Below are positions 3,844-56,345 of a stretch of DNA of 64,000 nucleotides, in pieces (the first letter of the stretch is position 1; the number at the start of each line of letters is the position of its first letter). The DNA comes from Clostridia bacterium (lineage in GTDB: Bacteria; Bacillota; Clostridia; Oscillospirales; CAG-272). The translations under genes and the position numbers were made by a program. The stretch is from positions 11,886 through 75,885 of the forward strand of contig JAFUNF010000018.1 of assembly GCA_017473085.1 (NCBI GenBank). The letters run 5' to 3'. The notes beneath the pieces are model-generated. The model was not told the origin of the DNA. It did not search any database and was given only the letters and a program-made list of their open reading frames with translations.

Positions 3844-3878
3844 AAAATGCTAAAATAACGGCAAAAGCCGATAAAAAA

Positions 3879-3992
3879 CACTTCTCTCATCCGGACTTTA
3901 ACCGTCGGTTTTGGAATTGCACCAAATCTGCCTAAGGGTTAGGCTCGCAGACTGTACTGCCGGTGGGGAGTTGCACCCCGCCCCGAAATATA
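3879..3992 (-). promoter_or_regulatory. FMN riboswitch (RFN element) aptamer
   Basis: The minus strand reads TTCGGGGCGGGGTGCAACTCCCCACCGGCAGTA...GCAGATTTGGTGCAATTCCAAAACCGACGGTTAAAGTCCGGATGAGAGAAG, matching the conserved RFN core segments. Confidence 0.85.
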
Positions 3993-4350
3993 TTAGGAAC
4001 AGTCAGATAGTGGCATAGAACGAAAAGCAGGATATATTCCCTCTTTTCTGCCTGTTCCCTTTATTTACTTGTCTATAATGTAGAGTTTTTCTATTTGTAG
4101 CATTTTAATACCACTTGCTTTTACCAAGAAAAACTCTTTTTATCTGCTTTTCTAATTGCGTTCTCTACTCTACCGTACAAAGTACGCCTACGCGTACGAG
4201 AACACAATTTCTCTACCCCTCCTGATGCCCCTAGATAGAGCTCCTTTAGGGCAATCATAACGTTTACAAAGTAAACTCATAACTCAACCCCGTTGAGCCA
4301 CACTCCCATTTTACCACTCCGTAGCTTATATGTCAATAAAAAAATGGTTG

Positions 4351-6371: not shown

Positions 6372-6476
6372 TGAAATGAAAATTGTTCACGTTTGCGAAG
6401 CAAATATTTCACCCCAAAGGGCTTTCATTTGTCCGAAAGTGAAAATTTCATTGCACTCCTGTTCTTGCAGGAGTGC
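6372..6476. repeat. hairpin-linker array, ATTTCAT flavour
   Basis: Hairpins tttgc-gaa-gcaaa, ccc-aaa-ggg and gcactcctg-ttcttg-caggagtgc, separated by tatttcac / ctttcatt / atttcatt. Confidence 0.6.
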
Positions 6477-6491: not shown

Positions 6492-7424
6492 TTATTGAAG
6501 TCTTTTTAGTCTTTCTAAAAGCGCTGAAAACTCCTTGGGTAGCTGGCACTCAAAGGTCATTTCCTGTTTTGTTCTTGGGTGGATTAGGGTAAGCCTTTTT
6601 GCGTGAAGGACTTGACCACAAAGCAAGGACTTGTTTGCCTTTTCAAATTGAGTTTTACCACCACCATAAACCTCGTCGCCAATGATTGGGTGGCCTAAGT
6701 AAGCACAATGAACTCTTATTTGATGAGTTCTGCCTGTTTCAAGCTCCATTTTAGCGTAGGTGTAGCCTCTGTATTCCTCAATTACAGAATAGTGGGTTAT
6801 AGCCTCTCTTGCTCCCTGTCTGTCAGGGGAAACAACTGCCATTTTCTTTCTGTCAACAGGGTGTCTTGCCATAAAGGTCCTGACTGTGCCTGTATGCTCC
6901 CTTAGGTGACCTGTTAAAATTGCGTGATATTCTCTTTTTATGTTGTGGTCCTTAAGCAGACTTGAAAGAAACACGTGACTCTCGTCGTTTTTTGCCACAA
7001 CCAAAAGACCACTTGTGTCCTTGTCTATTCTGTGTACAATTCCAGGACGAATAACCCCGTTTATGCCTGAAAGTCCATTTTTACAATGGAAAAGAAGTGC
7101 ATTTACAAGAGTACCACTTTCGTTGCCTGGCGCTGGGTGCACCACCATACCCGAGGGCTTGTTAATTACTATAATGTCGGAGTCCTCGTAAACTATATCG
7201 AGAGGAATATCCTCAGGGGTGCATTCCTCAAGGTCCTTAATTTCTCTTTTTTCTATCTCAATATCGTCATTTTGCCGAAGACGATAGTTTTTCGACTCCT
7301 GCTTGCCATTTACTAACACATAGCCATCGTCAATCAAGCCTTGGGCACAGGAGCGAGTAACCTCTTGTACCTCGGAAACGTACACGTCAAGGCGTTTTTT
7401 TACGTCTGTGTCATTTATTTTCAT
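6492..7424 (-). CDS. rluD: 23S rRNA pseudouridine synthase, RluA/RluD family
   Basis: S4-like N-terminus followed by the catalytic HRIDKDTSGLLVVAK motif. Confidence 0.85.
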   Translation of the reverse strand: MKINDTDVKKRLDVYVSEVQEVTRSCAQGLIDDGYVLVNGKQESKNYRLRQNDDIEIEKREIKDLEECTPEDIPLDIVYEDSDIIVINKPSGMVVHPAPGNESGTLVNALLFHCKNGLSGINGVIRPGIVHRIDKDTSGLLVVAKNDESHVFLSSLLKDHNIKREYHAILTGHLREHTGTVRTFMARHPVDRKKMAVVSPDRQGAREAITHYSVIEEYRGYTYAKMELETGRTHQIRVHCAYLGHPIIGDEVYGGGKTQFEKANKSLLCGQVLHAKRLTLIHPRTKQEMTFECQLPKEFSALLERLKRLQ

Positions 7425-14048: not shown

Positions 14049-16169
14049 CTATTTATTTTTGTAGTCCCATACAACGGGGCATTTTGAATTGTTCCACCAA
14101 CTGTTCCAGCCACTTGGCTCGCTTTCTGCCTCACAGTAGATTGTAAGGCTGCCGCAATCCTCAAACGCATACCTGCCTATTGTTGTTACACTGCTTGGAA
14201 TTTCTATGCTTGCAAGACTTGTACAACCAGAAAACGCCTCCTCGCCTAACGTAGTTACACCGTTTGGTATTTCTATACTTTCAAGGTTACGGCAATTATA
14301 AAATGCTCCCTCGCCTATTGTTGTTACACTGTTTGGAATCTCTATACTTGCAAGTCTCGTACAGCCAGAAAACACATAGTTACCTATTGTAGTTACACTG
14401 CTCGGAATCTCTATGTTTGCAAGGTTCGTACAACCAGAAAACACAGCATTACCTATTGTAGTTACAGGCAAATTATTAATTTTCTCTGGGATTGTAACAC
14501 TTGTTGTATTACCTAAATAATCGTATATTGTAATCTTGTTATCGTTAGTGCTCGCCCACTTTATTCCATCATTGGTTGTGCCATATTCCTTTACGTTCCA
14601 CACAACAAGGCAATTTGAATAGTTCCAACCGCTATTCCAACCACTTGGCTTGCTTTCCGCCTCACAGTAAATTGTTAAGTTGTCACAATCATAAAATGCC
14701 CTTTTGAATATTGTAGTTACACTGCTTGGAATTGTAATACTTTCAAGGTTTGTGCGTTTATAAAACGCCAATTCGCCTATTGTTGTTACAGGCAAATTAT
14801 TAATTTTCTCAGGGATTTTAATGTTTGTTGTCCCACTTGTAATCCCACACACTACTGCCTCGTTTGGCTTATCGTTTGTTGTTGCCCACTTTATTCCATC
14901 TTCTGTTGTGCCATATTCCTTTACGTTCCACACAACAGTACAATATGAACAGTTCCAATCGATGTCCCAACCACTTGGCTTGCTTTTTGCCTCACAATAA
15001 ATTGTTAGATTCAAGCATTTATAAAACGCATACTCGCCTATTGTAGTTACACTGCTTGGTATTTCTATGCTTGCAAGATTTGTACAATTAGAAAATGCAT
15101 TGGCGCCTATTTTTCCGTCTATTATTGTTACCTTTTTCAAGCTTGTTGGAACATAGACATCATTATAAGAATAGGAGCTGGCTCCAAAAATATAACCAAA
15201 GTGTGTCTTGTCACTTCCGTTGCCTACAAATGGTATAGTTATTTCTTCAAGACTTGTGCAGCCAGAAAACACCTCCTCGCCTAACGTAGTTACACTGTTT
15301 GGTATTTCTACGCTTGCAAGACTTGTACAACCAGAAAACGCATAGCTGCCTATTTTTTCTATTCCATTTTGAATAGTTACACTTTCGAGCTTTTTGCAAC
15401 TATAAAATGCAGACTGGTTTATTTTAGTAATTCCACTTGAAATGATAACGCTTTCAAGGTTCGTGCAATTCTCAAACGCAGAGTAGCCTATTGCTTCGAC
15501 AGGTTTATCATTGTAGGTATTGGGTATTACAACTTTTTTTGCACTATCGAGGCAATCTACAACCGTATAGCCCCCTCCACTTTCCTCAAAGGTCAAGGGT
15601 TGGTATTCAGTTTTTGCATAAATTATTAGGTTACCTGTTGTGCCTTTTTCTATTTTTGTAATTGGCTTAGTGTATTCTTGGTCCTCATACCAACCTAAAA
15701 ACGTATAGCCTTCGCCATAGGCGTCCGTTAGGTCAACTTCTGTTTCAATTGTATAGCTTGTTCGGTTATAGTGACTTGCATCGCAAACATACTCAATTTC
15801 ATAGCTAATTGGTGTCCAGCTTGCCTTAAGGGTCATATCCTTAGTTACACCTCTGTAAAAAGGCCATTTATTTCCGTCAATATACCAGTGCTTTAACTCG
15901 TAGCCAAGCCTTTCAGGGTCACTTGGCTTTGGAATTTTACCACCCTTTTCCACCTGTATGCTTTCAATAGCACTTCCACCCTGTGTGTCAAAGGTAATGG
16001 TTACGTATTCGGTATTTGGGTCGGTGTTTCCATTGTCCTCCGTGCCACCTGTTTGAGTGCCATTATTTTCTGTGCCTCCAACGTTATCGTTTCCACCACA
16101 GGACACAAGTCCTATGCACAAAAGTAGGCATAAAACAGCTACACTAAAAAGTAAAATTATTTTTTTCAT
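14049..16169 (-). CDS. BspA-type leucine-rich-repeat surface lipoprotein
   Basis: Signal peptide with lipobox LVSCGG. Listeria-Bacteroides type repeats (YTFLGWY). Many about 23-aa LRR_5 units (IPxSVTTIGxxAFxxCxxL). RBS GGAGGAG. Confidence 0.8.
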   Translation of the reverse strand: MKKIILLFSVAVLCLLLCIGLVSCGGNDNVGGTENNGTQTGGTEDNGNTDPNTEYVTITFDTQGGSAIESIQVEKGGKIPKPSDPERLGYELKHWYIDGNKWPFYRGVTKDMTLKASWTPISYEIEYVCDASHYNRTSYTIETEVDLTDAYGEGYTFLGWYEDQEYTKPITKIEKGTTGNLIIYAKTEYQPLTFEESGGGYTVVDCLDSAKKVVIPNTYNDKPVEAIGYSAFENCTNLESVIISSGITKINQSAFYSCKKLESVTIQNGIEKIGSYAFSGCTSLASVEIPNSVTTLGEEVFSGCTSLEEITIPFVGNGSDKTHFGYIFGASSYSYNDVYVPTSLKKVTIIDGKIGANAFSNCTNLASIEIPSSVTTIGEYAFYKCLNLTIYCEAKSKPSGWDIDWNCSYCTVVWNVKEYGTTEDGIKWATTNDKPNEAVVCGITSGTTNIKIPEKINNLPVTTIGELAFYKRTNLESITIPSSVTTIFKRAFYDCDNLTIYCEAESKPSGWNSGWNYSNCLVVWNVKEYGTTNDGIKWASTNDNKITIYDYLGNTTSVTIPEKINNLPVTTIGNAVFSGCTNLANIEIPSSVTTIGNYVFSGCTRLASIEIPNSVTTIGEGAFYNCRNLESIEIPNGVTTLGEEAFSGCTSLASIEIPSSVTTIGRYAFEDCGSLTIYCEAESEPSGWNSWWNNSKCPVVWDYKNK

Positions 16170-21883: not shown

Positions 21884-22013
21884 CAACCGACAGGTTGTAT
21901 ATCATCACGCAAGGCGTGTATATCATCAACCCTTGGTTGTATATCATCACTACCACAGGTAGTGTATATCATCAACCTCTAGGTTGTATATCATCACAAC
22001 GAAGTTGTGTATC
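21884..22013. repeat. hairpin-linker array, TATATCAT flavour (6 hairpins, 5 linkers)
   Basis: caacc-gaca-ggttg, TATATCAT, cacgc-aag-gcgtg, TATATCAT, caacc-ctt-ggttg, TATATCAT, cactacc-aca-ggtagtg, TATATCAT, caacctctaggttg, TATATCAT, cacaac-gaa-gttgtg. Confidence 0.8.
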
Positions 22014-22307
22014 CTACTCCTCGTCGTCCTCTTCTGCCAAAAGGTCGATGATGTCATTTGCGATTTTTTCGTCCTCAACGTAGTTAAGGCAATCCTTTTC
22101 CTCGTCAACCTGGAAGATAAGCACCTCGTCCTCGCCTACTCCCTCAAGCTTTGTTATAGGAGCAAGAACTGCGTAGTAGCTACCCTCGTAATCTACAAGT
22201 GCAACTTGGTCGAACTCAACCTCCTTGCCACTATTGTCCTTTATAGTAATTGGCTCAAAGTTATTATCATCAAAGAGCCTGTCAACGAATCTCTCATTAT
22301 TAGCCAT
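22014..22307 (-). CDS. DUF1292 family protein
   Basis: 97-aa acidic protein (MANNERFVDRLFDDNNFEPITIKDNSGKEVEF...YYAVL). RBS GGAGG. The start overlaps the dnaB end by 8 nt. Confidence 0.75.
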   Translation of the reverse strand: MANNERFVDRLFDDNNFEPITIKDNSGKEVEFDQVALVDYEGSYYAVLAPITKLEGVGEDEVLIFQVDEEKDCLNYVEDEKIANDIIDLLAEEDDEE

Positions 22308-32061: not shown

Positions 32062-33303
32062 ATGAAACGAATACTAACTAAATTTCTCATTCTTGCCCTT
32101 TGCCTTTCTATGATCCTTCCTTGCCTTTATTCCTGTGGCAATAATCAGGACGTTTATAGGTTAGGTGCCTATTCAATTAAGGAGGACGAATATCATTATC
32201 TTTTAGGTATGCAAAAAATGCAGGCGCTAAAGTCCCTCGGATATAGTGAAGAGGATATTGACCTTGAAATACAACAGGGCTATACCTTAGGAGATTATAT
32301 CGACGCAGCTTATTCCAGCCAGTTCGAGCAATCTGTTTTGACTCTTCTTTTCTCTGTTGCACTTTTTGACGAGTACCAGCTTACAATCAGCGATGAGAAA
32401 AGAAACACCTCAAACGAAATCATAGACACTCTTTTGACCTACTATGGTGGCTATTCAGAGAAATTTCTTGATAAAAGGCTTGACTCCTTAGGCTACAAGT
32501 TTACAACTGATACTCTAAGACGTGTTTACGAAATGCAAATGAAGCAGGGTGCAGTTATTGAGCACCTTTATGGTAGCAATTACGAAAAGCTAACAGATAG
32601 CGAAAAGGAAAGCTTTTGCAACGATTACTATATGCACTTTCAGGTTATTGTAGTAAATACTCTTTATAAAAGCCACACCGACTCAAATGGTAAAACCACC
32701 TATGTAAATCTTACACAGGACGAGATAAACGTGCAAAAGCGTATAGTTACTGAGCTTACAGAGCTTTTAGTAAACGACAACAAGGACTTTAACTATATAA
32801 TCATCGACCCCACCCTTTCCTACGAGGAGCTTTGGGAAAAATACTCTGACGATACTCTATATAAGCAGGGCTACTTTATGAAAAAGCCTGTGTCCTCTCA
32901 GCTTGCAAGCTCTCAAACACTTGCAACTGCCCTTGCATTGAAAACAGGGGACTGTGGAGTTGTCCCAGCCAAAAGATATTTTGATGGTAATGGCTCCATA
33001 ACCACCGAAAATGGTGAGGAGCAAATAAATGCAGGGGACTATTTCGAATATGGCTCTGCCTTCATCAAAAAGTTAGATATGGAAAAGGACGCATACACAA
33101 AGGAGGAAAACAAGGACTTTTTCTTCCCTGAGGGCTCAAACACCTTCAACCAACAGGCTTGTCAAAGTGCCTTTTATCAAAGACTAAAGGCTTACGAAAA
33201 GGAAAGCTCCATAGTGGTTGAGGTTTCTAACAAAAAGGACCAGTACACCATTAGTAGCTCAAAGGCAAACGAGCTTGATTATTACTATTTCTTTGGCGAC
33301 TAA
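32062..33303 (+). CDS. putative lipoprotein, function unknown
   Basis: Signal peptide with a lipobox-like LYSCGN. 413 aa. No catalytic motif recognised. Confidence 0.55.
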   Translation: MKRILTKFLILALCLSMILPCLYSCGNNQDVYRLGAYSIKEDEYHYLLGMQKMQALKSLGYSEEDIDLEIQQGYTLGDYIDAAYSSQFEQSVLTLLFSVALFDEYQLTISDEKRNTSNEIIDTLLTYYGGYSEKFLDKRLDSLGYKFTTDTLRRVYEMQMKQGAVIEHLYGSNYEKLTDSEKESFCNDYYMHFQVIVVNTLYKSHTDSNGKTTYVNLTQDEINVQKRIVTELTELLVNDNKDFNYIIIDPTLSYEELWEKYSDDTLYKQGYFMKKPVSSQLASSQTLATALALKTGDCGVVPAKRYFDGNGSITTENGEEQINAGDYFEYGSAFIKKLDMEKDAYTKEENKDFFFPEGSNTFNQQACQSAFYQRLKAYEKESSIVVEVSNKKDQYTISSSKANELDYYYFFGD

Positions 33304-33540
33304 GCCTTCCCCCAAGGGAAATGAAATCCACCTGTGGTGGATGAAATCGCTATGCGATGAAATCGTTACACGATGAAATCCTTGCTCTACAAGGATGAAA
33401 AAGCCGACACAGTGTCGGCTTTTTTAGTTTCATTCGACGTTAGGCGAATTTCAAGCACGACGAAGTCGTGTATTTCAAGCTAACTTCAGTTAGCATTTCA
33501 AGTGCGTTTCAACGCACATTTCATTCACCGAAGGTGTAGT
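33301..33540. repeat. mirror-symmetric hairpin-linker array (ATGAAAT half, terminator, ATTTCAW half)
   Basis: Left half: ccacc-tgt-ggtgg, cgc-tat-gcg, cgt-tac-acg and cctt-gctctac-aagg, joined by ATGAAAT. Centre: agccgacac-a-gtgtcggct with A/T runs. Right half: cacgac-gaa-gtcgtg, ctaac-ttca-gttag, tgcg-tttcaa-cgca and cacc-gaa-ggtg, joined by ATTTCAAG or ATTTCAT. Confidence 0.8.
33397..33425. terminator. bidirectional terminator at the centre of the array
   Basis: aaaaagccgacacagtgtcggcttttt. Confidence 0.8.
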
Positions 33541-33543
33541 CTT

Positions 33544-34260
33544 TTACTTCTTATCTTTAGCTACTCCACTTGACAGGAATCTAATTGCTCGTTCAACTGA
33601 GTCCTTGGAGTCGTACCAAGGCTCGTTGTCGTAGCGATAGTCAAACTTCTTGCAAAACCAAGAAACGTCATTTTTAAGCTTTTCAAGGTATGCGTTTTGA
33701 ATTTCCTGCACGTCCTTTGAAAGCTCTGCTTGCTTTTTCTTGTCAAGCTTCGCTGTTGCAAGAATCATAAATCTTTCATAGTGAGGCAGGCAGAAGCATT
33801 TTTGTCCCTTTAGCTTTTGCTTAAAGTCCACGTCGTAGGCGTATAGCAAAACTGCAGTTTCAAGCATTCTTGAGAAGTTATACTCAATTCGCTCGCAAAT
33901 ATAACAGCTTTTGCCAAGCCCTGTGGCTGTTTTTATAGATTTTTTAGTCTGGGTGCCTATTAGCTTTGAAAGGAAATTGCCCTTCATTTTGCCCTTGATC
34001 GTGTCAATATGGCTTTCCAGAATTAAGGCTAAGGACAAGCGATTATTTTTTTCTATCATTTGCTCAAAGTGGTCCTTGCAAAAGCCCTTTTCGTTTGTTT
34101 GTATTCTTGTGTTAGGCTCCATCATTGAGGGTCCAAGTGCTAATTCCACCTCTTTTTTCTCCAGCTTGTCAAAAAGCTTGCAGAAGGGACACTCATAGCC
34201 CTTTGTATCTCTTGCCTCCTCAAAGGCTTCATTTACAGGTATTGTATAAATTTGCTCCAT
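33544..34260 (-). CDS. Cys-rich hypothetical protein (two CxxC pairs; possibly the DUF6062 type)
   Basis: 238-aa ORF with CPFC...C...H and CYIC...CLPH arrangements. The family name is from memory only. Confidence 0.55.
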   Translation of the reverse strand: MEQIYTIPVNEAFEEARDTKGYECPFCKLFDKLEKKEVELALGPSMMEPNTRIQTNEKGFCKDHFEQMIEKNNRLSLALILESHIDTIKGKMKGNFLSKLIGTQTKKSIKTATGLGKSCYICERIEYNFSRMLETAVLLYAYDVDFKQKLKGQKCFCLPHYERFMILATAKLDKKKQAELSKDVQEIQNAYLEKLKNDVSWFCKKFDYRYDNEPWYDSKDSVERAIRFLSSGVAKDKK

Positions 34261-39340: not shown

Positions 39341-39376
39341 CAAAAAGACTTACTCAACCGAGTAAGTCTTTTTTTA
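39341..39376 (+). terminator. rho-independent terminator after the LRR gene
   Basis: aaaaagacttactc-aacc-gagtaagtcttttttt. Confidence 0.8.
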
Positions 39377-39377
39377 A

Positions 39378-39483
39378 TGAAATGTGCTACGCACTTGAAA
39401 TGCTAACTAAAGTTAGCTTGAAATACACGACAAGGTCGTGCTTGAAATGAAGCTAAAGCTTCATAAAAACCATTGCTACGCAA
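39378..39483. repeat. hairpin-linker array, (A/T)TGAAAT flavour; inverted homologue of 33428-33536
   Basis: gtgc-tac-gcac, gctaac-taaa-gttagc, cacgac-aag-gtcgtg, gaagc-taaa-gcttc and ttgc-tac-gcaa, joined by ATGAAAT or TTGAAAT. Confidence 0.75.
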
Positions 39484-41162: not shown

Positions 41163-41237
41163 GCTGGAGTAGCACAGTGGTAGTGCAGCTGATTCGTAAT
41201 CAGCAGGTCGTGAGTTCAAATCTCATCTTCAGCTCCA
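41163..41237 (+). tRNA. tRNA-Thr (anticodon CGT)
   Basis: Cloverleaf: acceptor GCTGGAG/CTTCAGC, anticodon stem GCTGA/TCAGC with loop TTCGTAA, T-arm GTGAG-TTCAAAT-CTCAT, encoded CCA. Confidence 0.85.
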
Positions 41238-41240
41238 AAA

Positions 41241-41280
41241 AATACTGCAGAAAAGGATACTTTTTCTGCAGTATTTTTTT
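41241..41280 (+). terminator. rho-independent terminator after the tRNA
   Basis: aatactgcagaaaa-ggatac-tttttctgcagtatt followed by TTTTTTT. Confidence 0.8.
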
Positions 41281-41282
41281 AT

Positions 41283-41466
41283 CCAAACTGCAGGTTTGGT
41301 ATATCATCACGCCTCGGCGTGTATATCATCAGCCCTTTGTGGCTGCATATCATCGCGACTTAGTCGTGCATACCCCACCCTGCTGTTTGATGATATACAA
41401 TGCTTTTCTCGCATTGGTGATATGCAATTCCTTGCAGAATTGATGATATGCAAGGCTGATGCCTTG
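41283..41466. repeat. bipartite hairpin-linker array, TATATCAT flavour (direct half plus inverted half)
   Basis: Left half: ccaaac-tgcag-gtttgg, cacgcc-tc-ggcgtg, cagcc-ctttgt-ggctg and cgcgac-tta-gtcgtg, joined by (T/C)ATATCAT. Right half: caatgc-ttttctc-gcattg, caattc-cttgca-gaattg and caaggc-tgat-gccttg, joined by (G/A)TGATAT(A/G). Confidence 0.8.
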
Positions 41467-41512
41467 ATTTTAATGTTAGAATGTGGTACAATACACCCAA
41501 AGAGGTGATATT

Positions 41513-41860
41513 GTGTCAAAAAACTATTTATTGATATATTCGGAACAACTCGCAACTGAAATAGAATTGATGTGCCAAAATATAAAAGCTCCATCAAATA
41601 CTTTGTTCCAAATACGTAAAAGCTCAAGCAGTGTTTATGCCAATATCCGTGAGGCAAATTATGGTCAAAGTAAAGCAGATATGCTTTCCAAATTTGAAAT
41701 TGCTCTTAAAGAATGCAGCGAAACTGAAGGCTGGTTACAGCTATTGTTCAACACAAATGGTATAGACGAAGAAACATACAAAAGCCACCGAAATCTTTGC
41801 GGACGCATTAGACGAATGTTGATTTCAAGTTGCAAAACGTTAAAGAATATTGGAAAGTAA
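41513..41860 (+). CDS. four-helix-bundle protein (23S rRNA intervening-sequence protein / Avd-like family)
   Basis: About 115 aa with the family-typical helices (IRKSSSSVYANIREANYGQSKADMLSKFEIALKECSETEGWL). GTG 41513 with RBS AGAGGTGA is preferred. Confidence 0.65.
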   Translation: MSKNYLLIYSEQLATEIELMCQNIKAPSNTLFQIRKSSSSVYANIREANYGQSKADMLSKFEIALKECSETEGWLQLLFNTNGIDEETYKSHRNLCGRIRRMLISSCKTLKNIGK

Positions 41861-41920
41861 AAAAACTATTAGCAATTATACTTCTGTCTTGTACGCTCTG
41901 CTTTGAGGTTTTTCAATTAA

Positions 41921-42147
41921 ATCCGTCCGAAACGGGATAAATCCACAAATGTGGATGAAATCACTACGAGAACCCCCTAAAATTCTCCGAATTTTTGGGG
42001 AACCCCTACATGATGAAATCAAGCTTCGCTTGGAGATAAGTAAGACGGATTTGATTTCATTTTTCCAACGGAAAGATTTCATTCGACCCTAGTCGGATTT
42101 CATTACACAAGGTATACTTCGTAATGTGCGTAAGCACAATTTCATTT
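41921..42147. repeat. bipartite hairpin-linker array, ATGAAAT then ATTTCAT flavour
   Basis: Left half: ccac-aaat-gtgg and caagc-ttc-gcttg, with ATGAAAT linkers. Right half: tttcc-aac-ggaaa, tcgac-ccta-gtcgg and tgtgc-gtaa-gcaca, with ATTTCAT(T) linkers. Confidence 0.7.
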
Positions 42148-42267: not shown

Positions 42268-43791
42268 ATGATTTACACAGAAAAAACAAAAAAGGCGCTT
42301 GCCTTGTGCTTTGAGGCACACAAGAATCAGGTTGACAAAGCAGGTATGCCTTATGTTTTTCACCCCTTTCATTTGGCTGAGCAAATGAAAACAGAGGAAG
42401 AAACCATAGTTGCTCTTTTGCACGACGTGGTTGAGGACACGGACTACACGCTTGCAGATTTAGAAAAAATGGGCTTTGGAGTGTCTGTAATTGAAGCATT
42501 AAAGCTCCTTACTCACGACACCTCGGTTGATTATTTTGACTACGTTAAAGCGATTTCCCAAAACGAAATAGCAAGGGCCGTTAAAATTGCCGACCTTACC
42601 CACAACTCTACCCTTGAAAGATTTGACTACAAGGACATTACCCCTTGGGACATAGAAAGACAGAAAAAATATTTCAAGGCGCTTGAAATATTAGGCGAGG
42701 TACCATACAAAAACAAGTATATGCTTTGTATCTGTTGTGGTGCTACCACCTTTAACAAGGACTACGTAGGTGCATTTGACACTTGCCCTATCTGTGGCTT
42801 TAATGACGAGGATTTGGTTACTAAGGACATAACCCTTGAGGGTGCACGACAACATTTTATAGAAAGCAAAAAAATAATAAAATATGTATTGCCACTGGGC
42901 TTAAGACGAGAAAAAATGACAAATTTAAAATACGAAAGAAAGCCTTCTAAAAATGAAATTACAATAACAGGGCTTTCTGACAAAAATGTAACCGAGGTTG
43001 TTATACCTGATGAAATTGACGGAAGCAAGGTTACAGAAATAGGCGACTCTGCCTTTTGGGATTGTGAGGAGCTTACAAGCGTTATAATTCCAAAGGGTGT
43101 AACCACAATAGGTGTCTCCGCCTTTTCAGGTTGCAATGAGCTTAGAAGCATTATAATTCCAGATAGTGTAACCACAATTGGCGCCTTTGCTTTTTTCAAC
43201 TGCACAAGGCTTAAAAATATTGAATTTCCAAATAGTATAGCTACCATAGGACGTTCCGCCTTTATGTATTGTAAAGGACTCACAAGTGTTACAATTCCAA
43301 ACAGTGTATCGAAAATAGAGACAAACATCTTTTCTGGTTGTACAGGACTTACAAGTGTTGTAATTCCAAACAGTGTAACTGCAATAGGCTCCTCCGCTTT
43401 TCATGGTTGCACAGGTCTTAAAATCATTGTGATTCCAAAAGGTGTAACTGCAATAGGTTCCTCTGCCTTTTGGGGTTGCACGTCACTTACAAATATTACA
43501 ATTCCAAACAGCGTTACGAAAATAGGTTTGAGTGCCTTTTTCAATTGCACGTCACTTACAAATATTACAATTCCAAACAGCGTTACGAAAATAGGTTTGA
43601 GTGCCTTTTTCAATTGCACGTCACTTACAAATATTACAATTCCAAACAGCGTTACAAAGATGGACAGCCATGTTTTCTTGAAATGTGATAATCTTACAAT
43701 TTACGCACAAGCAAATTCCAAGCCACGTGGTTGGGATTCCAATTGGAATCCAGACAACCGACCTGTTGTATGGGGTCACAATGGTCAATAA
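42268..43791 (+). CDS. fusion protein: HD-domain (RelA/SpoT-type small alarmone hydrolase-like), CPCC zinc ribbon and BspA-type LRR
   Basis: N-terminal HKNQVDKAGMPYVFHPFHLAE...LLHDVVEDT (HD_4 type). Middle CICCGATTF...CPICGFNDED. C-terminal 23-aa LRR_5 units. No signal peptide. RBS GAGGAG. Confidence 0.75.
   Translation: MIYTEKTKKALALCFEAHKNQVDKAGMPYVFHPFHLAEQMKTEEETIVALLHDVVEDTDYTLADLEKMGFGVSVIEALKLLTHDTSVDYFDYVKAISQNEIARAVKIADLTHNSTLERFDYKDITPWDIERQKKYFKALEILGEVPYKNKYMLCICCGATTFNKDYVGAFDTCPICGFNDEDLVTKDITLEGARQHFIESKKIIKYVLPLGLRREKMTNLKYERKPSKNEITITGLSDKNVTEVVIPDEIDGSKVTEIGDSAFWDCEELTSVIIPKGVTTIGVSAFSGCNELRSIIIPDSVTTIGAFAFFNCTRLKNIEFPNSIATIGRSAFMYCKGLTSVTIPNSVSKIETNIFSGCTGLTSVVIPNSVTAIGSSAFHGCTGLKIIVIPKGVTAIGSSAFWGCTSLTNITIPNSVTKIGLSAFFNCTSLTNITIPNSVTKIGLSAFFNCTSLTNITIPNSVTKMDSHVFLKCDNLTIYAQANSKPRGWDSNWNPDNRPVVWGHNGQ
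43477..43655 (+). repeat. perfect 69-bp tandem repeat (2.6 copies) inside the LRR coding region
   Basis: The unit tgcacgtcacttacaaatattacaattccaaacagcgttacgaaaataggtttgagtgcctttttcaat starts at 43477, 43546 and 43615. It equals one 23-aa LRR unit. Confidence 0.9.
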
Positions 43792-43865
43792 GAAGCACAA
43801 GGTAAAAAAATGCTCTTTACAAAAGCCTATGAATACAATACATAACTAAATCTAAAGGAGAAAAA

Positions 43866-44735
43866 ATGACAGATTTAATATACGAAATCGATACTTCAAA
43901 ATACGAAATTAAAATAACGGGAGTTTCCGATAAAAGTAAAAAGGAACTCGTTATTCCTGATGAAATAGACGGAATGGCTGTTACGGAAATAAGCAAAAGT
44001 GCATTTGAGAATTACGAGGAGCTTACAAGCGTGACAATTCCAAGCAGTGTAACCAGCATCGATTCCTATACCTTTGTCACTTGCAAAAAGCTTTCGGCTA
44101 TTATTGTTAAAGAAAACAATAGGACGTATAAATCTATTGACGGAAACTTGTATTCAAAGGATGGAAAAACTCTTATTCGATATGCCATAGGCAAAAAGGA
44201 CACCTCGTTTAAAATTCCAAACGACGTAACTGCATTAGCCCATTTCGCCTTTGCCAATTGCGCAAACCTTAAAAGTATTACAATGCCAAACAGTATAACC
44301 TCAATAGGTGCGTATGCCTTTTCACGTTGCACAGGGATTTCACGCATTGTTGTGCCAAGAGGTGTAACCACAATAGGCAAGCTTGCCTTTGACCACTTCA
44401 TAGGACTTGAAAGTGTTAAAATTCCAAGTAGTGTAACCTGCATCGATCACTTTGCCTTTGCCAATTGCCCAAGCCTTAAAAGTGTTAATATTCCAAGGAG
44501 CATAACCAATATCGGACACTTTGCCTTTATCCATTGCTTAAGCCTTAAAAACGTTACAATTCCAAAGAGTGTAACCAGCATCGGCAAAGAGACCTTTAAG
44601 GGCTGCACAAGTCTTACAATCCACGCACAAGTAAAATCTAAGCCTGACGGTTGGATTCCCAATTGGAATCCAGCCAATAGACCTGTCGTGTGGGGTTACA
44701 AAAAATGGTTCGGTCAAGGAAAGAATACAAAGTAA
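43866..44735 (+). CDS. BspA-type LRR protein, no signal peptide
   Basis: 289 aa of LRR_5 units. The N-terminus MTDLIYEIDTSKYEIKITG is paralogous to the internal M215 region of the preceding gene. RBS AAAGGAG. Confidence 0.75.
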   Translation: MTDLIYEIDTSKYEIKITGVSDKSKKELVIPDEIDGMAVTEISKSAFENYEELTSVTIPSSVTSIDSYTFVTCKKLSAIIVKENNRTYKSIDGNLYSKDGKTLIRYAIGKKDTSFKIPNDVTALAHFAFANCANLKSITMPNSITSIGAYAFSRCTGISRIVVPRGVTTIGKLAFDHFIGLESVKIPSSVTCIDHFAFANCPSLKSVNIPRSITNIGHFAFIHCLSLKNVTIPKSVTSIGKETFKGCTSLTIHAQVKSKPDGWIPNWNPANRPVVWGYKKWFGQGKNTK

Positions 44736-44736
44736 A

Positions 44737-45603
44737 ATGATAAATTTAAAATATGAAAAAAATCCTTCTAAAAATGAAATTACAATAACAGGACTTTCCT
44801 ACAAAAATGTAACCGAGGTTGTTATTCCTGCCGAAATTGACGGAATGGCAGTTACAGAAATAGGCGACTGTGCATTTTTGGATTGTGAGAAGCTTACGAG
44901 TGTTATAATTCCTAAGGGTGTAACCCACATTGGCAAGGATGCATTTTCGGGCTGTTCCTCCCTTACAAGCATCACACTTCCAGAGGGTGTAACAGCAATT
45001 GGCGAGTGTGCCTTTTGGCATTGTACAAGGCTTAAAAGCATTACTATTCCAAGCACAGTAACCTCAATTGGCGACTATGCCTTTCCCGATTGCGAGGAGC
45101 TTACAAGTATTATAATTCCTAATGGTGTAACAGCAATTGGCGAGTGTTGCTTTTCTGGTTGTATAAGCCTAAAAAGTGTAACAATTCCAAGCACTGTAAC
45201 CACAATTGGCGACTGTGCATTTGCAGGCTGTGAGGAGCTTACAAGCGTTACAATTCCCAAGAGTGTAACCACCATTGGTGCAAGTGCCTTTAGGAATTGT
45301 CAAGGGCTTAGAAGCATTGCATTTCCAGAGAGTGTAACCCACATTGGCAAGGAAGCCTTTTACGATTGCATATCGCTTACAAGTATAGTAATTCCAAAGG
45401 GTGTTGATACCTTAAATAATGGTGTCTTTTCTTGGTGCACACGTCTTACAAGCGTCACTATTCCAGAGGGCGTTACCACCATTGACAAGTGTGCCTTTTA
45501 TGGTTGTACCTCTCTTAAATGCGTCACAATACCAAGGAGTGTAACAACAATTGGCGAGCGTGCATTTTCCGATTGCACAATTATTGCATACAACAAAAAA
45601 TAG
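44737..45603 (+). CDS. BspA-type LRR protein, no signal peptide
   Basis: 288 aa of LRR_5 units. The N-terminus MINLKYEKNPSKNEITITG is nearly identical to the internal MTNLKYERKPSKNEITITG of the 42268 gene. Confidence 0.75.
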   Translation: MINLKYEKNPSKNEITITGLSYKNVTEVVIPAEIDGMAVTEIGDCAFLDCEKLTSVIIPKGVTHIGKDAFSGCSSLTSITLPEGVTAIGECAFWHCTRLKSITIPSTVTSIGDYAFPDCEELTSIIIPNGVTAIGECCFSGCISLKSVTIPSTVTTIGDCAFAGCEELTSVTIPKSVTTIGASAFRNCQGLRSIAFPESVTHIGKEAFYDCISLTSIVIPKGVDTLNNGVFSWCTRLTSVTIPEGVTTIDKCAFYGCTSLKCVTIPRSVTTIGERAFSDCTIIAYNKK

Positions 45604-53932: not shown

Positions 53933-53964
53933 AAATCCGTAGTCGGCTGACTACGGATTTTTAT
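53933..53964. terminator. bidirectional terminator between convergent lipoprotein genes
   Basis: aaaatccgtagtc-ggct-gactacggattttt. Confidence 0.8.
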
Positions 53965-55088
53965 TATTCTTCTGTTACTTCAACGCACAAAACAATACCC
54001 TTTTTGTCGTTTCTGTAATTTATATCTGCCGTGCCCATATAGAAGGTGCTATCGCTTTTGACAAGACTTACACAGCAGTATTCACTCTCAAAATATACAA
54101 GTCTTTCAAAATCCACACTATCCTTAGCTAAGTCAAGTGCCCAAATTGAAGTTCCATATTGCCCACTTTTCAATGGATAATGGCAAAGTGCGTATAGTGT
54201 ATTATCGTCCAAGCAATAATCAAGCACATATTCTCCACCGAAATCTATGCTTTTAAAGTCAATCATATTGTCGGTGTAGTAGCCTTGTGGCGTTGCTATA
54301 AATATCCTATCGTTTACAACCACCTTAGAGCCTATGATTTTGAAGTTAATGTATGAAGCTACTCGTGCTTGACTACCAAGGTCTGACACATATTCAAAGG
54401 TGCTATTTTCCTCGTTATACTGATACACCTCTAAGGCTAAGGTGCTACTTGCATCTCGTGACATTATGGCATAAAGCTTACCCTTTAGCATAACCAAATC
54501 AAACACTCTTGCCGACTCAATGCCCTTTGTTACTCTTTTTCCGTCCTTATAAAAATAGTGTCTTATCAAATCCTTGTCACTCTCATCGGTAGAAAAGCAG
54601 GGAGAGTATGAAATATCAGCATCAACCCCATAGAAAAGGCGACCCTCATAGCTTACCACGTCAAAGCAATGCTCTGTGTTAGTCAAAATTCTATGCTGAA
54701 TCCACTCGCCATTTTCGTAGGTGTTGTAGTTAGATATATTATTGTTTTCTGTTGAGTCAATTCCAGGTGCTACTAAGGTGTTGTCAATAACGAAGAAGCT
54801 ATTGATAACCTCCTCCTTCAAAACACCACTTTCAAAAAACTCCTTAGTGTCAAGGTCGTATGCGTAAACAGTAATAGGACCTGTGTTTGCATTTCCGTCC
54901 CCTGTGCCAAAGAAAATTTTATTCTCCCACAGGTACATATCCCACACGTTATCATTAATTGGACTATCAACTACTGTAAATTCAGCAAGTGTACCGCCCT
55001 TTTCTTCCTCACAAGAGGAAAGACCAAAGCACAGACCAACACAAAGCACAAGTGCAAGAAGTAAGGCAATTGCTTTTTTCATTGGCAT
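53964..55088 (-). CDS. putative lipoprotein, function unknown (repetitive beta-rich sequence)
   Basis: Signal peptide with lipobox GLSSCEE. 374 aa. Confidence 0.55.
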   Translation of the reverse strand: MPMKKAIALLLALVLCVGLCFGLSSCEEEKGGTLAEFTVVDSPINDNVWDMYLWENKIFFGTGDGNANTGPITVYAYDLDTKEFFESGVLKEEVINSFFVIDNTLVAPGIDSTENNNISNYNTYENGEWIQHRILTNTEHCFDVVSYEGRLFYGVDADISYSPCFSTDESDKDLIRHYFYKDGKRVTKGIESARVFDLVMLKGKLYAIMSRDASSTLALEVYQYNEENSTFEYVSDLGSQARVASYINFKIIGSKVVVNDRIFIATPQGYYTDNMIDFKSIDFGGEYVLDYCLDDNTLYALCHYPLKSGQYGTSIWALDLAKDSVDFERLVYFESEYCCVSLVKSDSTFYMGTADINYRNDKKGIVLCVEVTEE

Positions 55089-55116: not shown

Positions 55117-55217
55117 CCTGCGAAGCAGGATTTCATCGTGAAAGCGATTTCATTCACCAAAGGTGGATTTCATCCGTCAAAGACGGATTTCATTGCGTTG
55201 TGACTTTGTCACAACGC
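55117..55217. repeat. hairpin-linker array, ATTTCAT flavour (5 hairpins)
   Basis: cctgc-gaa-gcagg, ATTTCAT, cgt-gaaa-gcg, ATTTCAT, tcacc-aaa-ggtgg, ATTTCAT, ccgtc-aaa-gacgg, ATTTCATT, gcgttgtgac-ttt-gtcacaacgc. Confidence 0.8.
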
Positions 55218-55220
55218 CGA

Positions 55221-56345
55221 CTACCAGTTTGTATTCCACTTTCTTTTATAGGTATCGTTAAGGGGCTTTTCGGTGTCTTTTTTAGACACAGGGTGCTCTT
55301 TTTTTTGCATTTCTTCAAGAAAGCTTAAAAATTCATTCTCGTCAATTGGCAAGGCTACTACCTCGCCCTTGTAGGAGGAAAGGTAAGCACAGTTTGAAAT
55401 TTCAAGGCTTTTTAGTCCCTCTGTGGCAGGAGCAATTAGCTCCTTACCCTTAACTATTGCATTTACAAAATCCTTAATAATCTCCTTGTGACCGTTATAT
55501 TCCTTATCCCTAAAGGTCCTTAGCTTTTGTCCGTCCCTTTGAAGAATTAGCTTGCCCTTTTCAAGAAGAATTGAGCCACACTCTCCACTAATTTCAAGCC
55601 TGTTTGTACCATATTTGTCGCCTGTTGTGGTAATAAAGGTGCCAGTTGCTCCGTTTTCGTATTCGGCTATGATAGTTGCTTCATCCTCAACGGAAATATT
55701 GTGATACTTACCATTTTTGCAAACTGCATAAATTGTTTTTGGCATACCACAAAGCCACTGCCAAAGATCAAGATTGTGGGGGGCTTGATTAAGAAGCACT
55801 CCACCACCCTCACCCGTGTAGCTACCTCGCCAGCTATCAGACTCGTAGTACTGTTGTGTGCGATACCAGTTAGTAATTATCCACACGTTCCTTTGTATTT
55901 TTCCAATTTCGCCCTTGTCAATAAGCTTTTTTGCAAGAGTGTAAAGCTTGTTTACTCTTTGGTTTAGCATAATTCCAAAGACTACTCCCTTGTCCTCAGC
56001 CTTTTGACAAAGCTGTTTTCCACCCTTAGTAAATACACCAAAGGGCTTTTCCGTTAGCACGTGCACACCCCTTTCAATAGCATACTCGGCTATTGTTGGG
56101 TGCAGATAGTGGGGAGTTGCAATAATTACTGCATCTATGCCACTATTTATTAAATCCTCGTATTTTTCAAATACAGGAATTTGTGGGTGCTTTTCCTTAA
56201 GTGCGCTTAGCTTTTCCTTATCAATATCACAAAGGCCACCCAAGGTGCCACCCTCTATTTGATTTGTAATAATGGTATTCAGGTGTACGCTACCTATGTT
56301 GCCTACACCCACAATACCTATTTTTATAGTCTTTTTCATCGTCAA
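55221..56345 (-). CDS. Gfo/Idh/MocA family oxidoreductase
   Basis: N-terminal Rossmann motif IGIVGVGNIG. 374 aa. Confidence 0.8.
   Translation of the reverse strand: MTMKKTIKIGIVGVGNIGSVHLNTIITNQIEGGTLGGLCDIDKEKLSALKEKHPQIPVFEKYEDLINSGIDAVIIATPHYLHPTIAEYAIERGVHVLTEKPFGVFTKGGKQLCQKAEDKGVVFGIMLNQRVNKLYTLAKKLIDKGEIGKIQRNVWIITNWYRTQQYYESDSWRGSYTGEGGGVLLNQAPHNLDLWQWLCGMPKTIYAVCKNGKYHNISVEDEATIIAEYENGATGTFITTTGDKYGTNRLEISGECGSILLEKGKLILQRDGQKLRTFRDKEYNGHKEIIKDFVNAIVKGKELIAPATEGLKSLEISNCAYLSSYKGEVVALPIDENEFLSFLEEMQKKEHPVSKKDTEKPLNDTYKRKWNTNW

Follow-up and report, generated by a model that had tools for sequence, protein, structure and literature searches.

What is the row of small hairpins that fills the space between two convergent genes of a Clostridia genome, and why is it laid out as a mirror image around a terminator? 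The row, at 33304-33541, lies in a 64,000-nucleotide (nt) stretch of contig JAFUNF010000018.1 (Clostridia bacterium, assembly GCA_017473085.1); this whole stretch is called the window below. Its preliminary description, made from the sequence alone, proposed an RNA-level role because the arrays of the window seemed locked to the sense of the transcript upstream. We find that the region matches a known Rfam family, Gut-1 (RF01706), as a near-threshold member with an unusual terminator-centred layout. From sequence comparisons, we put at about one in two the probability that such arrays are cis recognition sites of a selfish module, made up of a four-helix-bundle (4HB) protein gene and its arrays, and that the copy at 33304-33541 is an orphan. 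The region has three parts:

33304 to 33396, plus strand: left arm, five hairpins on ATGAAAT linkers (fold z -4.4; Gut-1 match at 33319-33384).
33396 to 33426, both strands: putative central bidirectional intrinsic terminator (A5, 7-bp GC-rich stem GCCGACA/TGTCGGC, T6).
33427 to 33541, minus strand: right arm, five hairpins with (A/U)UGAAAU linkers on the minus strand (fold z -3.5; Gut-1 match at 33422-33503, minus strand).

The mirrored array around a bidirectional terminator between convergent genes is thus present as first described, with short, GC-rich hairpins joined by ATGAAAT on the left and by ATTTCA(T/A) on the right, except that the left half holds five hairpins instead of four (at about 33305-33320, 33326-33342, 33346-33358, 33362-33374 and 33378-33396). 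The left arm begins 1 nt past the stop codon of the plus-strand gene 32062-33303, which encodes 413 amino acids (aa) without a Pfam match on record. Exact ATGAAAT copies occur in this arm at 33321, 33341, 33357 and 33373, and a fifth, degenerate copy (ATGAAAA) leads into the A-run of the terminator. With its GC-rich stem, A-run and T-run, the segment 33396-33426 is predicted to terminate transcription intrinsically in both directions, and it occupies the slot held by a junction in most related elements. Read on the plus strand, the right-arm linkers are GTTTCAT at 33427, ATTTCA (ATTTCAAG, three times) at 33448, 33472 and 33495, and ATTTCAT at 33518. The arm stops 2 nt short of the stop codon of the minus-strand gene 33544-34260 (DUF6062), and its predicted fold includes an outer closing helix, GGUGAAU/AUUCGCC. 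Single arms fold as predicted hairpin rows, and the region as a whole has a fold z of -9.0. For one strand running across both arms, pairing of left with right linkers is also predicted, giving a rod of stacked four-way junctions (z -9.0 for 33301-33545, and z -8.0 for a related array at 41236-41470).

The array is not a product of chance: the window has 8 occurrences of ATGAAAT-N7-20-ATGAAAT, where 0.04 would be expected. No open reading frame (ORF) lies inside 33304-33541. Because each arm sits between a stop codon and the shared terminator, both are probably transcribed as mRNA 3' ends; any mRNA-stabilising or terminating effect that they may have would be secondary.

The identity of the array comes from an Rfam scan run at an E-value threshold, the gathering score of Gut-1 being 50 bits. 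The left arm scores 47.9 bits (E 1e-8), the right arm 33.2 bits, and the best copy of the window (the array at 55117) 49.1 bits; for Gut-1 matching over the whole window, E = 2.4e-6. Window copies lie 2-17 bits under the gathering score, and homologous arrays in other genomes exceed it (53.5-55.7 bits). Both arms align to model positions 1-77, which comprise three successive hairpins with (G/A)UGAAAU between them. The Gut-1 consensus is hairpin-GUGAAAU-hairpin-GUGAAAU-hairpin, with stems that take in the outer AU...(A/G)U, so that only GAA is unpaired. The likeness thus lies in hairpins carried on (G/A)UGAAAU linkers and in the gut metagenome habitat common to both, whereas the arrays studied here have a variable number of units instead of a fixed three, come in mirrored pairs, exist in multiple copies and have a protein gene linked to them.

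Weinberg et al. 2010 described Gut-1 on the basis of 43 sequences from human-gut metagenomes; they judged it likely to be RNA and not cis-regulatory, and gave no function (PMC2864571). Its published seed already contains members with GUGAUAU linkers and mirrored arrays between convergent genes, on which no comment was made (PMC2864571). Our literature searches turned up no work on Gut-1 after that description. Rfam files the family under 'Gene; sRNA', and a stand-alone small RNA (sRNA) gene would agree with the 2010 rating, with the covariation of stems and of a long-range closing helix described below, and with bidirectional terminators at module edges, which could end transcripts coming from either direction. 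We nevertheless consider this explanation very improbable. No promoter-like site is found in 33200-33650, the arms abut two stop codons and share the terminator of the genes, hairpin number is variable, and copies per genome run into the tens to hundreds. The region at 33304-33541 is thus not a free-standing sRNA gene of the kind that the Gut-1 classification implies.

Copy number and distribution were assessed with two pattern scans over 185,579 species genomes; counts of arrays, pairs and pattern loci given here and below are drawn from the matches listed by these scans. At least 134 clean arrays in at least 109 loci were recovered, nearly all in metagenome-assembled genomes (MAGs) of Clostridia, Eubacteriales, Oscillospiraceae or Acutalibacteraceae from human and herbivore guts. 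The window itself belongs to a scaffold from a gut metagenome, and the species representative nearest to it is a Clostridia MAG from goat caecum (Mfd identity 89%). One genome carries five copies of an element of about 235 nt that are 93-100% identical and have unrelated flanks, and repeats of 80-360 nt recur in 20 of the 22 genomes having two or more loci. Many copies lie at contig ends, as contigs break at arrays; a second assembly of the 33304-33541 locus, for example, breaks within the right arm, just ahead of a stem common to the array at 39403. In the window itself, the segments 33448-33525 and 39376-39448 share 87% identity across 78 nt, with three stems kept in order and different loops. 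Copies of one element differ chiefly in their loops (L064/L163/L187/L199; window 33457-33471 versus 39427-39441). In some cases a loop has been flipped into its exact reverse complement (CTTCG to CGAAG), a change that suggests template switching inside DNA palindromes.

The arrays are also sporadic, with 2 found in 80 Mfd-anchored loci of relatives (about 900 kb). None follows the nearest orthologues of the 413-aa gene (86% and 68% identical to it), where an ordinary promoter or terminator is found, and none follows the stop codon of 72 DUF6062 orthologues. A metagenome scan with the 413-aa protein found no relatives, and one with DUF6062 found only relatives at 47-60% identity, none with an array. 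The copy at 33304-33541 is not a conserved regulator of its two flanking genes. Many copies with unrelated flanks are what is expected of miniature inverted-repeat transposable elements (MITEs) and, judged from this distribution, the arrays are a dispersed, multi-copy, lineage-specific repeat family of uncultured gut Clostridia. At one locus (L229, 9400-9700), a composite with GTGATAT/ATATCAC linkers comes directly after a distant orthologue (39% identity) of the 413-aa gene, reflecting either an independent acquisition at the same kind of site or a preferred site. Carriage by phages was considered and dropped: the 25 exact-pattern matches in IMG/VR are not hairpin arrays and come without a 4HB gene.

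Most arrays of the ATGAAAT type (class 1) are halves of a composite, in which a TGAAAT arm is followed by a junction box, (C/T)AAATCC(G/A)CC, and by an opposite arm enclosed by an inverted repeat, AAATCCNCC...GGNGGATTT. Mirrored pairs are convergent in 103 cases and divergent in 5, with the box at the junction in 82; a terminator at the junction, as in 33304-33541, is rare among the 103. As the convergent excess holds regardless of the flanking genes, mirror symmetry is a property of the element and not the product of convergent transcription that the preliminary description had taken it for. A perfect-stem detector gave 7 of 77 for terminators next to class-1 composites; as it misses imperfect terminators, no conclusion is drawn from this count. 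In many composites, a longer hairpin (GCGTGATACTC-TTAAC-GGAGTATCACGC) stands ahead of the AAATCCGTC box in place of the terminator (L211, at about 1340-1400, L215, L219, L222, L229, L024, L184, L191 and L226); its stem is variable, its CTTAACGGAG loop region is constant, and it has no Rfam match.

The evidence that carries our explanation is a gene of about 120 aa that adjoins many composites and matches PF05635 (23S_rRNA_IVP, 68-91 bits) and TIGR02436 (75-99 bits). In a forward test, starting from the arrays, this 4HB gene was present in 23 pattern loci and in none of 80 control loci, among the matches listed; 19-80 nt separate its start from the same arm end, and the gene points away from that end. 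In the reverse test, 80 loci were fetched by 4HB protein alignment and searched with a hairpin-chain finder free of any assumption about linkers. Of 73 4HB genes, 49 had a chain with near-identical linkers on their upstream side; such a chain stood downstream of 1 gene in 74 and in 2 of 132 control spacers. The complete module, read on the gene strand, comprises an A-run/hairpin/T-run terminator, 'AT', a first hairpin, a left arm (3-5 hairpins), a junction, a right arm (2-4 hairpins, with linkers that are the exact reverse complement), a promoter and the 4HB gene. In 36 of 68 cases, a tRNA gene of the same orientation precedes the 4HB gene by no more than 450 nt; 13 isoacceptor types are represented, and class-1 modules likewise follow tRNA genes. 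The window contains one full module, which belongs to a second linker class (ATGATAT/ATATCAT, class 2) that coexists with the ATGAAAT class in the same genome and that the preliminary description had overlooked:

41163 to 41237: tRNA-Thr gene, directly preceding the arrays of the class-2 module.
41238 to 41470, plus strand: array part of the full class-2 module (z -8.0; class-2 linkers at 41280-41470).
41483 to 41860, plus strand: 4HB gene (PF05635, 68 bits; TIGR02436, 75 bits).

The array part runs from a bidirectional terminator through a first hairpin, a left arm with YATATCAT linkers and GNA-type loops, and a junction complementary to the first hairpin, to a right arm with ATGATATR linkers and TNC-type loops. 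A predicted promoter of the gene (TTGATT-17-TACAAT) is located at 41464-41492.

Across loci, all linkers of a module change in step with the 4HB protein clade:

Window-like 4HB clade (74-93% identity): left linker TATATCAT, right linker ATGATATA.
Sister 4HB clades (57-66% identity): left linkers TATGTAAT, TATGGAAT and CATGGCAT, right linkers ATTACATA and ATTCCATA.
MAENKLAD clade: left linker ATGAAAT, right linker ATTTCAT.
A further 4HB clade: left linker GTGATAT, right linker ATATCAC.
Another 4HB clade: left linkers TCGATAT and GCGATAT, right linker ATATCGA.
Locus L382: ATTCAATC upstream of the gene, GATTGAAT in downstream arrays.

Within a module, every hairpin is different, yet the six to eight linkers are alike throughout. 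This argues for a clade-specific reader and not for drift of linked DNA, and the 4HB gene is the only constant neighbour. Our preferred explanation would thus run as follows. The linkers, spaced by hairpins in a single-stranded transcript or in single-stranded DNA, would be bound by an oligomer of the cognate 4HB protein; the protein-plus-array unit would be a selfish module that spreads into spacers near terminators; and orphans would be its non-autonomous derivatives, surviving in such spacers. The copy at 33304-33541 could then affect the convergent mRNA 3' ends only as a side effect, through stiffening, protection or termination back-up. The broader proposition is more tentative: Gut-1 arrays and stand-alone, Avd-like 4HB proteins may form an unrecognised partnership, in which each clade reads its own linker of 7-8 nt and the unit propagates itself into terminator and tRNA 3' flanks, leaving orphans behind. 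The closest solved relatives of the 4HB proteins, PDB 2RLD and 2GSC, have five chains per entry; a match of five subunits to five linkers was considered and dropped, as arms mostly have 3-4 linkers.

Several observations weigh against this explanation. A 4HB gene accompanies only about 18% of the class-1 composites that have enough flank, although several others hold fragments of one. The match between linkers and clades could reflect co-inheritance of neighbours instead of recognition. As the only 4HB gene of the window is of class 2 and the linkers at 33304-33541 are of class 1, the cognate gene would have to be located elsewhere in the genome. To our knowledge, 4HB proteins bind no nucleic acid in a sequence-specific manner and have no catalytic motif that would serve mobility. 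Neither a target-site duplication nor a clean empty site was found: the nearest relatives at this locus (L233 and L227) hold three extra genes between the flanking genes, so that no boundary can be read at the nucleotide level. An imperfect 13-nt terminal inverted repeat is seen in one genome only, and the sole copy with both flanks lacks a duplication. Finally, the evidence on which strand is read is in conflict, as detailed below.

The main rival at the DNA level is a mobile repeat similar to repetitive extragenic palindromes (REPs) and bacterial interspersed mosaic elements (BIMEs), or to derivatives of the IS200/IS605 insertion sequences, with single-stranded DNA hairpins read by a nuclease or transposase encoded elsewhere and the 4HB protein as a passenger or accessory. 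The structure of the arrays bears on it directly. Among 258 distinct hairpins, 1206 of 1243 pairs (97%) are Watson-Crick, and all spacers form flush hairpins in 57 of 145 candidate arrays, against 1% after spacer shuffling. By these counts, the stems are selected to pair, with the compensatory changes expected of Gut-1. They are nearly devoid of wobble, with 6 G.T against 10 A.C mismatches and no excess of G.U; an excess of G.U as a means to tell RNA from DNA was consequently dropped. On the ATGAAAT strand, triloops are TNC in 59 of 135 cases and never GNA, and tetraloops are TNNC in 38 of 83 cases and never GNNA. Other clades show the same coupling between loop type and linker, with 0-2 exceptions. 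It follows that only the opposite strand bears C(GNA)G and GNRA loops; 49 of the 59 TNC triloops are closed by C-G. C(GNA)G is a hyperstable DNA mini-hairpin, and GNRA is a stable RNA tetraloop. The base that precedes TGAAAT is A in 215 cases, G in 30, T in 7 and C in none, a preference that agrees with U.G pairs on the ATGAAAT strand like those of the Rfam model. The G before the linker therefore favours the ATGAAAT strand, and the loops favour the opposite one. The arm type that faces the tRNA gene varies between clades and, as the arms are mirrored, every transcript holds one arm of each type. The 5' arm and loop of the first hairpin are complementary to the junction, with a perfect run that averages 9.6 nt in cognate pairings and 4.6 nt in non-cognate ones (nine versions). 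Such a covarying long-range closing helix implies that the left arm, at least, folds in single-stranded form as a single domain.

The scarcity of wobble, the C(GNA)G loops, the loop flips expected from template switching within DNA palindromes and the dispersed, assembly-breaking copies all suit a DNA-level repeat. No transposase was seen beside the elements, although their neighbours were not systematically screened; hairpin sequences are not conserved, unlike those of REPs; and such a repeat on its own leaves the fixed 4HB geometry and the linker-clade match unexplained. We therefore regard it as unlikely, although it is the strongest of the rivals.

A second rival is that the arrays are host RNA elements of 3' untranslated regions, acting in the sense of the upstream gene by protecting 3' ends, by helping termination or by binding a host RNA-binding protein such as KhpB. 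It is best judged together with the remaining arrays of the window, all of those listed by the preliminary description being present:

6372 to 6476, minus strand: degenerate class-1 array between the stop codon of the minus-strand gene 6492-7424 and a terminator (Gut-1 match at 6379-6453, 31.0 bits; z -5.8).
21885 to 22015, minus strand: class-2 array of six hairpins on ATGATATA linkers, then a terminator.
39376 to 39465, plus strand: class-1 array past the terminator of a leucine-rich-repeat (LRR) gene, paralogue of the right arm.
41920 to 42147, both strands: class-1 composite with a plus-strand arm at 41920-42052 inside the inverted repeat AAATCCGTC...GACGGATTT and a minus-strand arm at 42054-42147 (Gut-1 match at 42071-42147, 31.5 bits).
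55117 to 55220, minus strand: class-1 array that fills the spacer of the co-directional minus-strand genes 55221-56345 and 53964-55088 (Gut-1 match at 55125-55195, 49.1 bits; z -5.1).

The class-2 array at 21885-22015 starts directly past the stop codon (22014-22016) of a small ORF. Six of the arrays (6372, 21885, 33304, 33427, 41920 and 55117) have the same sense as the gene whose end lies just upstream, so the sense orientation noted at the outset does hold for most of the window. The rule was also said to cover the LRR gene; the array is there, but past that gene's terminator and not before it. Across genomes, the orientation lock fails. By crude gene calls (longest non-overlapping ORFs) for the 134 arrays in 109 loci among the matches listed, array and upstream gene share a strand in 40 cases and lie on opposite strands in 45. 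This is the census that had been named beforehand as the refuting test; it shows no overall bias, and the rule does not stand as a general law. The mix of spacer types equals the background. Composites are commoner in divergent spacers (18) than in convergent ones (8), and the two orientations in tandem spacers are represented 20 and 8 times. Among solo arrays, 31 share the strand of their upstream gene and 21 are opposite to it, and many begin 7-25 nt past a stop codon. Sense orientation is thus a mild tendency and not a lock. The composite at 41920-42147, whose right half was presented as the one exception to the rule, has the commonest, standard layout.

The solo arrays, the six sense-oriented arrays, the strong folding of the arms and the substitution of G for A before TGAAAT, which fits U.G pairing on the sense strand, speak for elements acting in 3' untranslated regions. 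Nevertheless, such elements should not show an unbiased overall orientation or a preference for divergent spacers. The mirrored design stands upstream of promoters in the 49 4HB loci of the reverse test, where there is no convergent transcript, the array at 39378 lies past a terminator, orthologous 3' ends have no array, and dispersal in near-identical copies is the mark of a repeat family. This explanation is improbable, somewhat more so than the DNA-level repeat. Of the RNA-level role first proposed, oriented single-strand units selected for structure stand, together with a plausible protein partner, while the lock to the upstream transcript does not.

The arms might also act as a fail-safe series of terminators, in which a GC-rich hairpin followed by the U-rich AUUUCAU halts read-through from the opposite gene. 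A terminator scan does flag antisense units (e.g., GTGCGTTTCAACGCAC-ATTTCATT), GNA/GNRA loops on that strand are fast-folding, and the arms flank a bidirectional terminator. The corresponding linkers of other classes, such as AUAUCAC and AUUACAU, are not U-tracts, however, the orientation of the arms relative to the adjacent terminator differs among clades, and the 4HB link would have no explanation. Of all the rivals, we give this one the least credit, slightly below the stand-alone sRNA gene.

How do these arrays compare with known systems? REPs and BIMEs are short intergenic palindromes with a conserved flanking oligonucleotide and alternating orientation, matched by class to a RAYT protein (a Y1 HUH transposase), with orphans near 3' ends and terminators. 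Gut-1 arrays are likewise dispersed, intergenic palindromic units in alternating orientation, and their repeat class matches a neighbouring protein gene. However, their palindrome sequence is free, only the linker being kept, and their partner is a four-helix bundle without a known nuclease fold, not a Y1 HUH transposase. BOX elements of pneumococci and Correia elements of Neisseria are MITE-like intergenic elements of about 130-250 nt, with variable-number modules and pairing ends, that can alter neighbouring transcripts. Gut-1 elements resemble them in being noncoding and intergenic, with variable internal modules, near promoters and terminators. Unlike them, Gut-1 elements have no established terminal repeats or target duplication, and their modules are different hairpins that have only the linker in common.

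The 4HB family itself offers two further comparisons. Its S23p members are the cargo of a selfish element located in a stable-RNA gene and excised by RNase III (PMC4990558). With these intervening sequences of 23S rRNA (Coxiella, Leptospira; PMC4990558), the modules share the PF05635 family, strongly pairing flanks and, if our explanation holds, a selfish unit tied to stable RNA; a PF05635 ORF lies within the element in full modules, including that of 41483-41860. The modules differ in following tRNA genes or sitting in ordinary spacers, whereas S23p elements lie inside 23S rRNA helices (helix 25/45), and in having arrays of small hairpins instead of one long stem cut by RNase III. S23p/4HB proteins are also relatives of Avd, a protein of diversity-generating retroelements (DGRs) (PMC10053308; PDB 4DWL cited there), and Avd is a homologous small four-helix bundle that acts on a structured RNA encoded alongside it (PMC10053308). 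Neither a reverse transcriptase nor a template/variable repeat pair was noticed beside the 4HB genes, whose flanks were not screened for them.

According to the literature that we searched, four points are new: Gut-1 as a modular repeat family, its intrinsic mirror design, its link to PF05635 genes downstream of tRNA genes, and linkers that track the protein clade. Gut-1 has been a gut-only sRNA without function in Rfam since 2010, and PF05635 proteins are widespread and unexplained outside DGRs; the link makes both testable. If true, it would provide a first function for Gut-1 and for the large PF05635/TIGR02436 family outside DGRs. For annotation, Gut-1 matches are better treated as an assembly-breaking repeat family than as single sRNA genes.

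Some minor observations concern the modules and the rest of the window. PADLOC gave no defence-system match. In two loci (L093, 4019-4902, and L095, 2722-3487), a second ORF (176 aa and 166 aa, respectively, neither with a Pfam match) overlaps the 4HB gene, and arrays stand on either side of the pair, in the manner of a small cassette. Assembly JAZORU01 (L336, L396) carries two 4HB clades after two tRNA genes (Trp, Leu), so several modules can share one genome. The window contains about one array per 6-9 kb. It also holds an FMN riboswitch at 3875-3994 on the minus strand (RF00050, 110 bits) and large LRR_5-type genes with 69-nt (23-aa) tandem repeats at 14163-14466 and 43067-45404; three repeat-bearing genes of this type come after the class-1 composite, at 42268-45603.

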